From Escherichia phage HP3, in sequence record NC_041919.1: a DNA stretch of 64,000 nt; one strand, written 5' to 3'. The position numbers and the translations under genes were made by a program. This document shows positions 41,371 through 54,137 of the stretch, in pieces (positions within the stretch are counted from its first letter, which is position 1; every line of letters begins with the position of its first letter). The notes beneath the pieces were generated by a model. That model was given only the letters and a program-made list of their open reading frames with translations. It ran no database searches and was not told the DNA's origin.

Positions 41371-42340
41371 AATGAAAACTGTAACTATCAATAAGGGTAT
41401 CTACTTCGGTAAAGAAATCTCTGGAACTTTTGAGCTCTTAGGTGAATGGTTCCCAGATAATGCTCCGGTAGATGCACAAGGAGATGGTAAAGTTTTTGTT
41501 GAAATTGACGGTAAGCGTCGCGGTGTTTGGGTTTACAAATCAGACATTTCATATGATGGTGTAAAAGTTGAAGAAGTTAAAGAATCGTATGAAGATATGA
41601 AAACCCGCATTAATAAAAGATTTAATGTTATGGGAATGATGACGAATGGTATTATTAACGGAAACATTCGTTCATTAATTATCTCTGGTGCGGCGGGTAT
41701 TGGTAAAACGTATTCTTTAGATAAAGCTTTAAATAAAGCAAATGATATTGGATACATTGAATATAAAAGCATTAATGGTAAAATCTCTGGTATTGGTCTT
41801 TATGAGCAGCTTTGGAATAATCGTGAAGAGAATTCTGTACTTTTGATTGATGATGTGGATGTTTTCTCTGATATGGACATTCTTAATCTTCTGAAAGCTG
41901 CTCTGGACACCGGAGAGACCCGCAAAGTCTGCTGGAGCACTGCATCTTCTTACTTAGAAGAAAAAGGCATTGAGCGTGAGTTTGAATTTAAAGGAACGAT
42001 TGTTTTTATCACAAACGTTGACATTGACCGCGAATTAGACCGTGGTACTAAACTTGCTCCACATTTACAAGCATTAGTTTCCCGCTCGGTTTATTTAGAT
42101 TTGGGTGTTCACACTAATGAAGAAATTATGGTCAGGGTTGAAGATGTTATTCTTTCAACTGACATGATGCAAAAACGCGGTCTTTCTGATGAAGAAACTT
42201 ATAAAGCATTATCATGGATGAAAGTCAATGTTAATCGTTTACGCAATGTTTCACTGCGTACTGCACTTTATCTTGCTGACTTTATTATGACCGACAAAAA
42301 CGGTTGGGAAGAAATCGCTGAGGTTACTCTTCTGAAATAA
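41371..42340 (+). CDS. AAA+/P-loop ATPase
   Basis: 323 aa from ATG after SD ggagaa; Walker A GAAGIGKT, Walker B LLIDDVD, sensor-like FITN. Confidence 0.55.
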
Positions 42341-48394: not shown

Positions 48395-48658
48395 ATGTTT
48401 AAAGTATATGGTTATGATAGCAACATTCATAAATGCGTGTATTGCGATAATGCAAAACGTCTTTTGACTGTGAAGAAACAGCCGTTTGAATTTATCAACA
48501 TTATGCCGGAAAAAGGTGTTTTTGATGATGAGAAAATCGCTGAGCTTCTGACTAAACTAGGTCGTGATACTCAAATCGGCTTGACAATGCCTCAGGTATT
48601 TGCTCCTGATGGAAGTCATATTGGTGGATTTGACCAACTGCGAGAATATTTTAAATGA
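48395..48658 (+). CDS. nrdC: Thioredoxin/glutaredoxin NrdC
   Basis: 87 aa; CVYC active site; MFKVYGYDSNIHKCVYCDNAKRLL matches recalled T4 thioredoxin. Confidence 0.9.
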   Translation: MFKVYGYDSNIHKCVYCDNAKRLLTVKKQPFEFINIMPEKGVFDDEKIAELLTKLGRDTQIGLTMPQVFAPDGSHIGGFDQLREYFK

Positions 48659-49692: not shown

Positions 49693-50166
49693 ATGTTATT
49701 GACTGGCAAATTATACAAAGAAGAAAAACAGAAATTTTATAATGCACAAAACGGTAAATGCTTAATTTGCCAACGAGAACTAAATCCTGATGTTCAAGCT
49801 AATCACCTTGACCATGATCATGAATTAAATGGACCAAAAGCAGGAAAGGTACGTGGATTGCTTTGTAATCTCTGCAATGCCGCAGAAGGTCAAATGAAGC
49901 ATAAATTTAATCGTTCTGGCTTAAAGGGACAAGGTGTTGATTATCTTGAATGGTTAGAAAATTTACTTACTTATTTAAAATCCGATTACACCCAAAATAA
50001 TATTCACCCTAACTTTATTGGAGATAAATCAAAGGAATTTTCTCGTTTAGGAAAAGAGGAAATGATGGCTGAGATGCTTCAAAGAGGATTTGAATATAAT
50101 GAATCTGACACTAAAACACAGTTAATAGCTTCATTTAAGAAGCAGCTTAGAAAGAGTTTAAAATGA
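49693..50166 (+). CDS. 49: Endonuclease VII (Holliday junction resolvase)
   Basis: 157 aa; MLLTGKLYKEEKQKFYNAQNGKCLICQREL...HLDHDHE matches recalled T4 gp49. Confidence 0.9.
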   Translation: MLLTGKLYKEEKQKFYNAQNGKCLICQRELNPDVQANHLDHDHELNGPKAGKVRGLLCNLCNAAEGQMKHKFNRSGLKGQGVDYLEWLENLLTYLKSDYTQNNIHPNFIGDKSKEFSRLGKEEMMAEMLQRGFEYNESDTKTQLIASFKKQLRKSLK

Positions 50167-51980
50167 CAATTGAAAAAGAAATTGAAGGATTGATTCATAA
50201 AACTAATAAAGACCTTTTGAACGAGAATGCTAATAAAGATTCTCGTGTTTTTCCAACTCAACGGGACCTTATGGCTGGTATTGTGTCTAAACACATTGCC
50301 AAAAATATGGTCCCGTCTTTTATTATGAAAGCGCATGAAAGCGGAATTATTCATTTCCATGATATTGATTATTCCCCTGCTCTTCCATTTACTAATTGTT
50401 GTTTAGTAGATTTAAAAGGAATGCTTGAGAACGGATTTAAGCTTGGTAATGCGCAGATTGAAACTCCTAAATCAATCGGTGTTGCTACTGCAATTATGGC
50501 ACAAATTACTGCACAGGTTGCTTCCCATCAATATGGCGGAACGACTTTTGCGAATGTAGATAAAGTACTTTCTCCTTATGTTAAACGCACATATGCAAAA
50601 CATATTGAGGATGCAGAAAAATGGCAAATCGCTGATGCGTTGAATTATGCTCAATCTAAAACAGAAAAAGACGTATACGATGCATTCCAAGCTTATGAAT
50701 ATGAAGTAAATACTCTCTTTAGTTCAAACGGACAAACACCTTTTGTAACAATTACATTTGGTACGGGAACTGACTGGACTGAACGAATGATTCAGAAAGC
50801 AATTCTGAAAAATCGTATTAAAGGTCTTGGTCGTGATGGGATAACTCCTATTTTCCCTAAGCTTGTTATGTTTGTTGAAGAAGGTGTTAATCTTTATAAA
50901 GACGATCCGAACTATGATATTAAGCAGCTTGCTCTAGAGTGTGCAAGCAAAAGGATGTATCCTGATATTATTTCAGCTAAGAACAATAAAGCTATCACTG
51001 GTTCATCTGTTCCTGTTTCTCCAATGGGTTGCCGTAGTTTCTTGAGCGTATGGAAAGATTCGACTGGTAATGAAATTCTTGATGGACGTAATAATCTTGG
51101 TGTTGTAACACTGAATCTTCCTCGTATTGCGTTGGATTCTTATATTGGAACACAGTTCAATGAACAGAAATTTGTTAAATTATTCAATGAGCGAATGGAT
51201 TTATGTTTTGAAGCTTTGATGTGTAGAATTAGTTCCTTAAAAGGAGTTAAAGCGACTGTTGCTCCTATTCTTTACCAAGAAGGTGCATTCGGGGTTCGTC
51301 TTAAACCTGATGACGATATAATTGAGTTATTTAAAAATGGTAGAAGTTCAGTGTCTTTAGGATACATTGGTATTCACGAATTGAATATTCTTGTCGGTCG
51401 TGATATTGGACAGGAAATTTTAACTAAAATGAATGCTCGTCTTAAACAGTGGACTGAAAGAACTGGGTTTGCTTTTAGCTTGTATTCTACTCCTGCTGAA
51501 AACCTTTGCTATCGCTTCTGTAAACTTGATACAGAAAAATATGGAAGTGTAAAGGATGTTACTGATAAAGGCTGGTACACTAACAGTTTCCATGTTTCAG
51601 TAGAAGAAAATATTACTCCGTTTGAAAAGATTTCTCGCGAAGCCCCGTATCATTTCATTGCAACAGGTGGTCACATTTCTTATGTTGAACTTCCTGATAT
51701 GAAAAATAACTTAAAAGGTCTTGAGGCTGTATGGGATTATGCTGCACAACATTTAGATTATTTTGGTGTTAATATGCCAGTAGATAAATGTTTTACGTGT
51801 GGAAGTACCCATGAAATGACTCCTACTGAAAACGGGTTTGTTTGTTCTATTTGTGGAGAAACTGATCCTAAAAAGATGAACACAATAAGAAGAACATGCG
51901 GTTATTTGGGAAACCCGAACGAACGCGGATTTAATCTCGGTAAAAATAAAGAAATCATGCATAGGGTTAAACACCAATGA
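50163..51980 (+). CDS. nrdD: Anaerobic ribonucleotide reductase large subunit NrdD (intronless)
   Basis: 605 aa continuous ORF; C-terminal glycyl radical motif RRTCGYLGNP; Cys-rich zinc site CFTCGS...CSICG. Confidence 0.9.
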   Translation: MTIEKEIEGLIHKTNKDLLNENANKDSRVFPTQRDLMAGIVSKHIAKNMVPSFIMKAHESGIIHFHDIDYSPALPFTNCCLVDLKGMLENGFKLGNAQIETPKSIGVATAIMAQITAQVASHQYGGTTFANVDKVLSPYVKRTYAKHIEDAEKWQIADALNYAQSKTEKDVYDAFQAYEYEVNTLFSSNGQTPFVTITFGTGTDWTERMIQKAILKNRIKGLGRDGITPIFPKLVMFVEEGVNLYKDDPNYDIKQLALECASKRMYPDIISAKNNKAITGSSVPVSPMGCRSFLSVWKDSTGNEILDGRNNLGVVTLNLPRIALDSYIGTQFNEQKFVKLFNERMDLCFEALMCRISSLKGVKATVAPILYQEGAFGVRLKPDDDIIELFKNGRSSVSLGYIGIHELNILVGRDIGQEILTKMNARLKQWTERTGFAFSLYSTPAENLCYRFCKLDTEKYGSVKDVTDKGWYTNSFHVSVEENITPFEKISREAPYHFIATGGHISYVELPDMKNNLKGLEAVWDYAAQHLDYFGVNMPVDKCFTCGSTHEMTPTENGFVCSICGETDPKKMNTIRRTCGYLGNPNERGFNLGKNKEIMHRVKHQ

Positions 51981-52609
51981 ATTATGACAGAATCTATTCA
52001 AATCTAGTTAATTCTGCTGAACACCCATCTAAGCCCCGTCAAACTAAAGCCGGGTATGAACTTCATCATATAATTCCAAGAAGTATGGGTGGTTCAGATG
52101 ATTTAGACAACTTAGTATTTTTAACTTATAAGGCCCACTATACTGCTCACCATTTATTGGCTAAAATATATGGTGGAAAGATGTATGATGCATATTGGAT
52201 AATGAGTAATAGTAAGCATAGAAAAGTTACTTCTTCACAATACGCGTATGCAAAAGCTAAGAAATTTGAAAATCAGCGTGGCGCAAAAAGAAGCGATAAA
52301 ACTAAGAAGCTAATGAGCATAGCTAGGTCTAAAGTAACTCTTCCTGATGATTTTGGAAAAAGGATATCTGATGGGCTAACAGGAAGAACTTTGTCTACTA
52401 GTCATAAAGAGCATATCAAAAATAGTTCTAGAAATCGCTTTAACACCAAAACGGTTATTGGCTATTCACCAGACGGAAATACAATAGAACTAACTGGAGC
52501 AACTGAAATAAGAAATGCAGGATTTTTTCATTCTGCTGTTTATAAATGTTGCAAAGGAATTCAATCTATTCATAAGGGATATACTTGGAAATATAAAGAT
52601 GAATTATGA
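51977..52609 (+). CDS. Free-standing HNH homing-endonuclease-like protein
   Basis: 210 aa; HNH motif ELHHIIPRSMGGSDDLDNLVFLTYKAHYTAHH; first 20 nt nearly identical to the nrdG start. Confidence 0.75.
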   Translation: MNYDRIYSNLVNSAEHPSKPRQTKAGYELHHIIPRSMGGSDDLDNLVFLTYKAHYTAHHLLAKIYGGKMYDAYWIMSNSKHRKVTSSQYAYAKAKKFENQRGAKRSDKTKKLMSIARSKVTLPDDFGKRISDGLTGRTLSTSHKEHIKNSSRNRFNTKTVIGYSPDGNTIELTGATEIRNAGFFHSAVYKCCKGIQSIHKGYTWKYKDEL

Positions 52610-53069
52610 TAGAATTTATCCATGCGATTTCGTTAACGGCCCTGGATGTAGGGTCGTTCTCTTCGTCACTGGATGTTTGCATAAATGCGAAGGTTGTTAT
52701 AATCGTAGTACTTGGAATGCTCGTAACGGACAGTTATTCACTATGAATACCGTTAAAGAACTTGCGTCCCATTTAAGCAAATCGTATATCCAAGGCCTTA
52801 CCTTAACCGGTGGTGACCCACTTTATCCACAGAACCGAGAAGAGATTTCAAATTTAGTTTCTTGGGTTAAAGCAAGATTTCCTGAGAAAGACATTTGGTT
52901 GTGGACAGGATATAAGTTTGAAGATATTAAACAACTAGAAATGCTTAAATATGTTGATGTTATTATTGATGGGAAGTATGAGAAAAATCTTCCGACCAAA
53001 AAGCTGTGGCGAGGATCAGATAATCAGCGACTTTGGTCAAATACCGATGGGGTGTGGACACATGATTAA
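52599..53069 (+). CDS. nrdG: Anaerobic RNR activating enzyme NrdG (radical SAM)
   Basis: 156 aa from the internal ATG (MNYDRIYPCDF...); CLHKCEGCYN cluster; same length as T4 NrdG. Confidence 0.85.
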   Translation: MNYDRIYPCDFVNGPGCRVVLFVTGCLHKCEGCYNRSTWNARNGQLFTMNTVKELASHLSKSYIQGLTLTGGDPLYPQNREEISNLVSWVKARFPEKDIWLWTGYKFEDIKQLEMLKYVDVIIDGKYEKNLPTKKLWRGSDNQRLWSNTDGVWTHD

Positions 53070-53402: not shown

Positions 53403-53714
53403 ATGATTAGTTTTGAGCGGTATGTGGTAGAGAGTTGGAAGGGTTTTGATATGTTCGGTAATGACTATTATTTTTACGAATGTAGTCTAAATCCTAGTTT
53501 TTGGGCTGGACGTGAACGAGATCTCGAAGAAATTAATGCTCGTGCCGAATTGTTAGGTGAACTGCCTACGGTTTATTTTACCTTTGATGCATCTGGATTT
53601 GTTATCCAGGTTTATTTTCCTGAAGAAAACTCTGGTGAGGATTCTGTTAACCCGCCATACTGGGCTTATCAAGGAATTATTTCTCGTGGAACAAAACTCG
53701 AACTTAAAGAATAA
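53403..53714 (+). CDS. Hypothetical protein
   Basis: 103 aa. Confidence 0.4.
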   Translation: MISFERYVVESWKGFDMFGNDYYFYECSLNPSFWAGRERDLEEINARAELLGELPTVYFTFDASGFVIQVYFPEENSGEDSVNPPYWAYQGIISRGTKLELKE

Positions 53715-54009
53715 GATTGAAATCTATGGCATCCCCGAAGAAGTAGGTCGTTGTCCTGGATGTCAATCAGTTACAAAACTTCTAAAGGAGCTCAATGCTC
53801 CTTTTACTTTCTATAAAGTTCTTACAAATAATGGTAAGATTGAGTATGATCGTCCACTGATTGTATCTCTTGCTAAACGTGCTGGATTCACATCTCTTAA
53901 CATTCGTTATCCAGTCATTTTCATTAATGATTCTAGACAAAAGAACATTAAACACTTCAAAGAAACTCTCATTTCACTTGGATATGATAGAGATATCATA
54001 GAAGATTAA
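53686..54009 (+). CDS. Thioredoxin-fold redoxin (NrdH/glutaredoxin-like) with probable GTG start
   Basis: CPGC motif in KIEIYGIPEEVGRCPGCQ; no in-frame ATG near the N-terminus; GTG at 53686 with SD aagga 10 nt upstream. Confidence 0.4.
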   Translation: MEQNSNLKNKIEIYGIPEEVGRCPGCQSVTKLLKELNAPFTFYKVLTNNGKIEYDRPLIVSLAKRAGFTSLNIRYPVIFINDSRQKNIKHFKETLISLGYDRDIIED

Positions 54010-54012
54010 GAC

Positions 54013-54035
54013 GGGCCCTCTGGGCCTTTCTTTCT
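54013..54035 (+). terminator. Intrinsic terminator
   Basis: gggccctctgggcc hairpin followed by tttctttct. Confidence 0.55.
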
Positions 54036-54108: not shown

Positions 54109-54137
54109 TTTACAACAAGTTCAAACCGTGGTATTAT
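54109..54137 (+). promoter_or_regulatory. Early promoter
   Basis: ttcacaaagttgtttaca, -35 tttaca, 17 nt spacer, -10 tattat. Confidence 0.5.

Follow-up and report, generated by a model that had tools for sequence, protein, structure and literature searches.

The nrdH gene of Escherichia phage HP3, a glutaredoxin-like gene of the T4 type with a conserved GTG start codon

Background

NrdC is the established reductant of the aerobic NrdAB of phage T4. Class Ib NrdH-redoxins (E. coli NrdH type) are characterized by a CVQC active site and a WSGFRP motif. T4 also carries nrdH (UniProt P07077; RefSeq T4 41805–42113; T4T ADJ39791.1), and the RefSeq CDS of 309 nt equals a gene model starting at GTG. 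In the T4 record, an annotator's note states that nrdH “has glutaredoxin activity”. In a T4 proteome/transcriptome time course (PMC9697503 supplement), nrdH (309 nt) was placed in the class “early-RNA_late-Protein”, indicating that its protein was detected by MS.

T4 uses GTG starts routinely: among 88 CDSs sampled from the first 50 kb of its curated record, eight begin with a codon other than ATG (seven GTG and one TTG). Besides nrdH, GTG is the start of genes 41, 46, 46.1, mobA and dexA.2 and of the internal start 49′; in these, as in nrdH, it follows an A/G-rich Shine-Dalgarno (SD) sequence, and in these compact early operons the start often lies within, or directly abuts, the gene before it. 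No mechanistic difference separates nrdH from these genes, and it is notable only for the shift from ATG to an upstream GTG among its relatives.

Here we describe the nrdH locus in a 64,000-nt stretch of Escherichia phage HP3 (NC_041919.1), referred to as the window.

Results

Layout of the nrdH locus

The features of the locus are listed in Table 1. A preliminary description had noted a CPGC-containing thioredoxin-fold ORF with no ATG near its N-terminus, and this agreed with the ORF and its translation: none of the 107 codons of nrdH, from the GTG onward, is an in-frame ATG. From this GTG the frame translates as VEQNSNLKNKIEIYGIPEEVGRCPGCQS... and ends at TAA (54007–54009). The spacer from AAGGA (53671–53675) to the GTG is 10 nt (9 nt when AAGGAA is taken as the SD), and nrdH overlaps the upstream ORF, with its TAA at 53712–53714, by 29 nt. 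The GTG, the SD 10 nt before it and the 29-nt overlap had all been described earlier, and each coordinate was confirmed. The ATT at 53716 is in the nrdH frame, 1 nt past the upstream stop codon. The gene had also been placed after nrdG; it is indeed downstream, but not immediately, with 55.9, 55.8 and the RB69ORF082c-like ORF intervening. The hairpin after nrdH is annotated as a terminator, under region 54013..54035, in other phage records.

The sole in-frame ATG upstream (53587) is located 33 codons before the GTG, within the upstream gene. A longer N-terminus beginning there was rejected: this ATG has no SD, substitutions follow the other frame, and the frame is closed in relatives.

Table 1. 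Features of the nrdH locus and related genes in the window
Feature	Position	Strand	Basis or remark
nrdC, T4 glutaredoxin/thioredoxin	48395..48658	+	ORF list; ATG-initiated, CVYC motif; closest characterized paralogue
nrdG, anaerobic RNR activase	52599..53069	+	HP3.1 annotation mapped, and ORF translation
103-aa gene of unknown function, RB69ORF082c-like (phrog_2749)	53403..53714	+	phrog_2749, E = 3.7e-49
Predicted Shine-Dalgarno sequence AAGGAA	53671..53676	+	inside the phrog_2749 gene, at its 3′ end
nrdH CDS, glutaredoxin-like, T4-type	53686..54009	+	107 codons and stop, GTG-initiated; ORF and translation
Predicted GTG initiation codon of nrdH	53686..53688	+	T4T and RB69 nrdH are annotated from the homologous GTG
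AAT codon	53710..53712	+	site of the ATG/TTG start (MKIEIYG) in distant orthologues
ATT, nrdH codon 11	53716..53718	+	conserved Ile/Val, first β-strand (IEIYG); rejected as initiator
CPGC redox-active motif, Cys23-Pro-Gly-Cys26 counted from the GTG	53752..53763	+	read from the sequence
Terminator-like hairpin GGGCCC-TCT-GGGCC and T-rich tail	54013..54035	+	consensus scan; 4 nt past the nrdH stop

Identification of a T4-type nrdH

The 681 bases around the ORF matched 638 phage records, almost all of them from T4-like phages of enterobacteria; identity to Escherichia phage HP3.1 was 100%. HP3.1 is annotated as “Glutaredoxin” over exactly the interval of this ORF; orthologues are named nrdH in the curated T4 record and “NrdH glutaredoxin” in the RB69 record. 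The NrdH core, from Ile11, was 98% identical to T4 NrdH over 97 residues. The ORF was intact in 1,350 phage records, and in 1,195 of them at least 80% of it was covered; such homologues often lack an adjacent nrdDG. From these matches the ORF is assigned as the orthologue of T4 nrdH, and the window is assigned to Tequatrovirus.

The locus shares with that of T4 the CPGC motif, a GTG start behind AAGGAAT, with an SD of the form AAGGAR, the terminator downstream and the 55.x neighbours. It is positioned downstream of nrdD-mobC-nrdG-55.9-55.8 in both, and the flanks (nrdG, 55.9, 55.8 and 55.6–55.1) are as in T4T. It differs from T4 in its leader, which has 10 residues here and 5 in T4 (a 15-nt in-frame difference), and in a phrog_2749 gene between 55.8 and nrdH, present here and in RB69 but lost in T4.

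Glutaredoxin fold and relation to NrdC

Residues 22–82 matched Pfam Glutaredoxin (PF00462) at 23.8 bits, against a gathering cut-off of 22.9 (E = 5.2e-5), and the product matched phrog_22 “thioredoxin domain” (E = 3.6e-16). The profile of a 10-sequence alignment (A1) matched the T4 glutaredoxin NrdC (PDB 1AAZ) with E = 5.9e-8, and other glutaredoxins in the PDB with marginal scores only. Both Cys residues and the Gly of CPGC were invariant in A1, and CPGC aligned with the CVYC of 1AAZ directly after strand β1 and at the N-terminus of helix α1, the place of CxxC in this family. Also invariant was the Pro of “RYPVIF” (P66 from the Ile), which aligned with the Pro of “TMPQVF” in 1AAZ, the cis-Pro position before β3. 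A single-sequence AlphaFold2 model was too poor for a fold search (pLDDT 46); its order of elements, E-H-H-E-H-E-H, was compatible with the β-α-β-α-β-β-α glutaredoxin fold. On the sequence profiles NrdH is placed in the glutaredoxin/thioredoxin-fold family. The Pfam, phrog_22 and 1AAZ matches, together with T4 orthology, bear out the earlier view of a thioredoxin-fold redoxin and nrdH-like gene of T-even phages.

NrdC (PDB 1AAZ, 1ABA and 1DE1/2) belongs to the same fold family and is the nearest solved structure to NrdH. The two proteins have CxxC in the same place after β1 and a Pro before β3, and nrdC belongs to the same early region, ~5 kb ahead of nrdH; BLASTP gave 23% identity (E = 2e-7). 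Unlike NrdC, NrdH has CPGC rather than CVYC, a GTG rather than an ATG start, an N-terminal leader and a C-terminal extension of ~20 residues ending in GYDxDIIED.

With class Ib NrdH-redoxins NrdH shares its name, its small size and a thioredoxin-superfamily CxxC fold. No NrdH-type NCBIfam model matched the protein, the only hit being to a YruB-family model below threshold (15.6 bits against a cut-off of 88.6), and no NrdH-redoxin chain was among the PDB matches. Comparison with E. coli NrdH by hhalign gave only 28% probability. Neither CVQC nor a WSGFRP-like motif was present in the translation. No nrdIEF genes were found within 45.5–56.5 kb of the window; the neighbourhood of nrdH instead comprises nrdD and nrdG, a gene for an HNH endonuclease, and small 55.x ORFs. 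The shared name is therefore nominal, and NrdH is classified as a paralogue of T4 glutaredoxin NrdC, not as a class Ib NrdH-redoxin.

Conservation of the GTG start codon

In-frame starts upstream of the conserved Ile of IEIYGIPE were tabulated for 48 distinct related loci from IMG/VR (designated by L numbers). The GTG was kept in 20 of these loci, always in frame and 15, 21 or 30 nt ahead of the conserved Ile codon, and all indels between GTG and Ile were multiples of three. In the T4-type loci and in L034–L037, L043 and L064, this GTG was the sole canonical start of the open frame. An ATG at −1, −2 or −4 codons from the Ile (MKIEIYG) was found in 23 loci, the more distant orthologues, and a TTG at −2 in 3 loci. 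At the ATG-equivalent site the T4 clade has AAT, AAC, ACT or TTA. The GTG is out of frame in Pectobacterium phage PM2.

The loci with TTG are L038, L039 and L073. L073 has a strong SD (GAGGTG); in L038 and L039 the SDs are weak and another in-frame TTG lies three codons before the first, which leaves the true start ambiguous. In L059 (1180–1400) an ATG occupies the GTG-homologous codon and an internal deletion removes the RCPGC segment; with 65 codons from the Ile, against the usual ~98, this nrdH is probably an inactivated copy.

The homologous GTG is the annotated start of nrdH in T4T, RB69 and HP3.1. Its context is AAGGAATagttGTGaaacaaaat in T4, and in RB69 it is identical to that of the window (AAGGAATtatttctcGTGgaacaaaac). 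Local alignment of the SD and GTG of T4 with those of the window scored 22, against 14 for an alternative placement, and 0.6% of shuffles reached 22. MAFFT had aligned the T4 junction segment with the 5′ end of the gene upstream, a placement rejected because the explicit local alignment favours the 3′-end SD and GTG.

In the overlapping arrangement, an Arg codon of the upstream ORF could account for part of the GTG conservation. In T4 and L035–37 no upstream ORF overlaps the GTG, indicating that its conservation there is not a by-product of other coding. A GTG behind an SD in a lone sequence is within chance expectation, and its significance stems from the conservation across relatives. That conservation, with the T4, RB69 and HP3.1 annotations, upholds GTG 53686 as the very probable initiator. 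The start had been called unusual, a view at odds with the 8 non-ATG starts among 88 sampled T4 CDSs.

Ribosome-binding site and initiation

The anti-SD duplex energy before the GTG was −5.4 kcal/mol in the window and −6.1 to −8.6 kcal/mol in relatives, within the top 1–7% of the window background; every lineage has a strong SD ahead of the GTG. The SD of the window is only moderate, at about the 7th percentile of background and with a longish spacer of 9–10 nt. An SD placed 5–13 nt before an in-frame GTG that orthologues conserve is nevertheless the arrangement of GUG-initiated bacterial and phage genes, and nrdH shows it. No RNA structure sequestering the start was found (MFE z-score 0.61 for the start region), Rfam gave nothing above chance there, and inverted repeats were absent. 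In the papers searched, no relevant T4 ribosome profiling or N-terminal data were found.

We consider it very probable that this T4 nrdH orthologue, encoding a CPGC glutaredoxin-fold paralogue of NrdC, is translated by SD-dependent initiation at GUG 53686, a start relocated during evolution. The 30S subunit would pair with AAGGA(A), located in the final codons of phrog_2749 just upstream, and the GUG would be read by fMet-tRNA as in ordinary SD-dependent initiation. The predicted product has 107 residues, with a variable leader of ~10 residues ahead of strand β1 (IEIYG). The gene would be carried on an early polycistronic mRNA ending at the hairpin and T-run after nrdH. Translational coupling may contribute, through ribosomes that terminate on the upstream ORF 26 nt past the GTG.

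ATT 53716 had been named as the other plausible initiator. An AUU start, possibly by termination-reinitiation after the upstream TAA, would give 97 residues at a low, IF3-sensitive level; AUU initiation has a precedent in E. coli infC. The codon is in frame just past the upstream stop, it aligns with Phe2/Lys3 of T4 NrdC at the start of β1, and residue 1 would be set at β1, near the starts of T4 NrdC (MFKVYG) and of the distant orthologues. However, the corresponding codon in orthologues is ATT, ATA, ATC, GTT, GTG, GTA or GTC, a plain conserved Ile/Val, and the anti-SD pairing before it (−0.9 kcal/mol) is about the background median, so that no SD is present. The combination of a conserved AUU and a ribosome-binding site, as in infC, was not found. 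In T4 proper no ORF ends beside the ATT-equivalent codon, which rules out reinitiation as a general mechanism, and the segment from GTG to ATT holds frame at three lengths, unexpected of an untranslated spacer. Initiation at ATT is thus very improbable, and GTG 53686 is retained as the predicted start.

Coding frames at the overlap

In the window, nrdH is read in the +1 frame of the upstream ORF, and this frame is open for 43 codons ahead of the GTG. Frame phase was examined in seven sequences sharing the overlapping nrdH/phrog_2749 arrangement. Variable sites fell on third codon positions of the upstream ORF up to 53669. In 53557–53685, 13 of 15 variable sites were third positions of that ORF, corresponding to position 2 of the nrdH frame, indicating that this interval is not coding in the nrdH frame. 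Past 53715, seven of eight variable sites were at nrdH third positions. Between them, the stretch with the SD, the GTG and the overlap (53670–53711) had zero variable sites in the seven sequences. Position 3 varies in 33 of 89 codons in the remaining upstream ORF, and the absence of variable third positions among these 14 codons has P ~0.0015, calculated from the counts.

The open frame would also fit a programmed +1 frameshift within the 29-nt overlap that joins NrdH to the phrog_2749 protein, or a split of one real gene by a sequencing frameshift artefact. A continuous ORF is in fact found in PM2 (L046 904–1503 = L074 355–954; NC_028940 41901–42500), where a phrog_2749-like ORF and nrdH form one 199-aa ORF named “glutaredoxin nrdH”. 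The PM2 junction hangs on a run of seven A (GTGGAAAAAAATATCC), and A8 would restore a separate GTG-initiated gene. Among the matches listed PM2 is the sole fusion, the others giving two pieces in different frames, and for PM2 a true fusion and a sequencing error in the homopolymer are equally likely.

Against a fusion in the window stand the substitutions upstream of the GTG, which fall on position 2 of the nrdH frame, and the closure of this frame 9–17 codons upstream in L035–37, L043, L044 and L064, or 8–17 codons upstream over several lineages. T4 lacks the upstream gene entirely and keeps nrdH with its GTG. No recognizable shift site was seen on inspection of the overlap, and a conserved upstream ORF, a shift site and a frame open in all members, as in prfB-type +1 frameshifting, were not found together. 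The same arrangement is present in hundreds of independently sequenced genomes. A “sequencing or frameshift issue”, as raised in the preliminary description, is refuted by the GTG, SD and frame kept across lineages and by the identical annotation in T4, RB69 and HP3.1. We regard a frameshifted or artefactually split gene as extremely improbable.

Purifying selection on nrdH

In comparisons with unsaturated synonymous sites, dN/dS of the nrdH core was 0.09–0.11. It had been proposed earlier that an ATG in orthologues at a position mutated here would mark a pseudogene. Such a position exists, the AAT at 53710–53712, but a dN/dS of ~0.1 and the detection of T4 NrdH are contrary to a pseudogene, and the AAT in place of ATG appears to reflect a start that moved rather than a gene in decay.

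The reading of nrdH as a decaying, untranslated pseudogene that lost its ATG could appeal to the ATG of distant orthologues, to the 2-nt gap truncating the copy in the RB69 record and to the L059 deletion of CPGC, but it is scarcely tenable in view of that dN/dS with synonymous sites diverged to ~1, the ORF intact in 1,350 phage records, the invariant active-site Cys and cis-Pro position, and T4 NrdH detected by MS. Together, the frame phase, the dN/dS and the detected T4 protein lead us to reject the pseudogene, sequencing-error and frameshift readings in favour of an intact gene starting at GTG 53686.

In the RB69 record (AY303349; L003 ~1555–1565, in the 3′ part of nrdH), the gap reads CAAA--GATATT against CAAAAGAATATT in the close relative L033. 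The annotated RB69 NrdH is truncated to 90 aa by the resulting frameshift, and the C-terminus ...LGYDSDIIED is readable in another frame. The gap is likely a sequencing error or a mutation of the laboratory strain.

The upstream phrog_2749 gene and a proposed relocation of the start

Pfam and NCBIfam searches gave no match to the product of the upstream ORF. The SD and GTG of nrdH sit in its conserved C-terminal ...YQG... codons. A phrog_2749 gene lies upstream of nrdH in all GTG-clade loci with readable upstream DNA, except the T4 type (L034 begins too near nrdH for its presence to be judged), and is absent from ATG-start orthologues. It adjoins nrdH in 542 phage records (at least 80% coverage of the PM2 fused query).

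In the simplest history, the ATG beside β1, still used by distant T4-like phages, would have been lost in the clade carrying phrog_2749, the start having moved upstream to the GTG when or after the phrog_2749 gene arrived. T4 would later have deleted this gene, keeping the SD and GTG. The 55.8-nrdH junction of T4 resembles a phrog_2749 deletion that kept the last codons with SD and GTG.

Neighbourhood and the anaerobic RNR

A redoxin beside the anaerobic RNR genes had been considered biologically sensible. The nrdD and nrdG genes are indeed nearby here, but the link is looser than this suggests: gene 49 (endonuclease VII) precedes the nrdH region in 17 of the 48 loci, with no adjacent nrdD-nrdG, and characterized class III RNRs take their electrons mostly from formate (PMC4493059). 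For these two reasons, that NrdH serves the anaerobic RNR is a weak assumption. NrdH would act as a thiol-disulfide reductase for phage nucleotide metabolism, with a partner that need not be the anaerobic RNR.

Gene 49 was directly upstream of 55.8/phrog_2749/nrdH in, e.g., L036, L040-46, L050-54 and L064 (L026–L073, 1.2 kb upstream). L035 and L036 are close relatives, yet they differ in their gene 49/nrdDG arrangement. The nrdD of the window (50163–51980) is one uninterrupted ORF of 605 aa, whereas the I-TevII group I intron interrupts nrdD in the T4 record. As in T4, nrdD and nrdG are separated by a mobC-like gene for an HNH homing endonuclease (51977–52609). A strong match to a sigma-70-like promoter was found at 54109–54137 (TTTACA-17 nt-TATTAT with a TG extension, 10/12 matches), just past the nrdH terminator and before the 55.6 ORF; it is consistent with a T4 early promoter of the next unit.

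Discussion

The curated T4 and RB69 annotations already contain this gene, with its fold family and GTG start, and nrdH of HP3 is an ordinary intact gene. For annotation, its correct start here is GTG 53686, and the locus should not be recorded as an ATT-initiated gene, a pseudogene or a frameshift. The name “NrdH” should not be taken as membership of the class Ib NrdH-redoxins.

It is conceivable, though we think it rather unlikely, that relocation of the start into the acquired phrog_2749 gene has coupled the synthesis of NrdH to that gene and that the two proteins cooperate, the phrog_2749 protein being a partner or substrate of NrdH. Such cooperation is hinted at by the two genes being strictly adjacent in 542 phage genomes and fused in frame in PM2. 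If the link is true, the phrog_2749 protein could explain the purpose of a second phage glutaredoxin.
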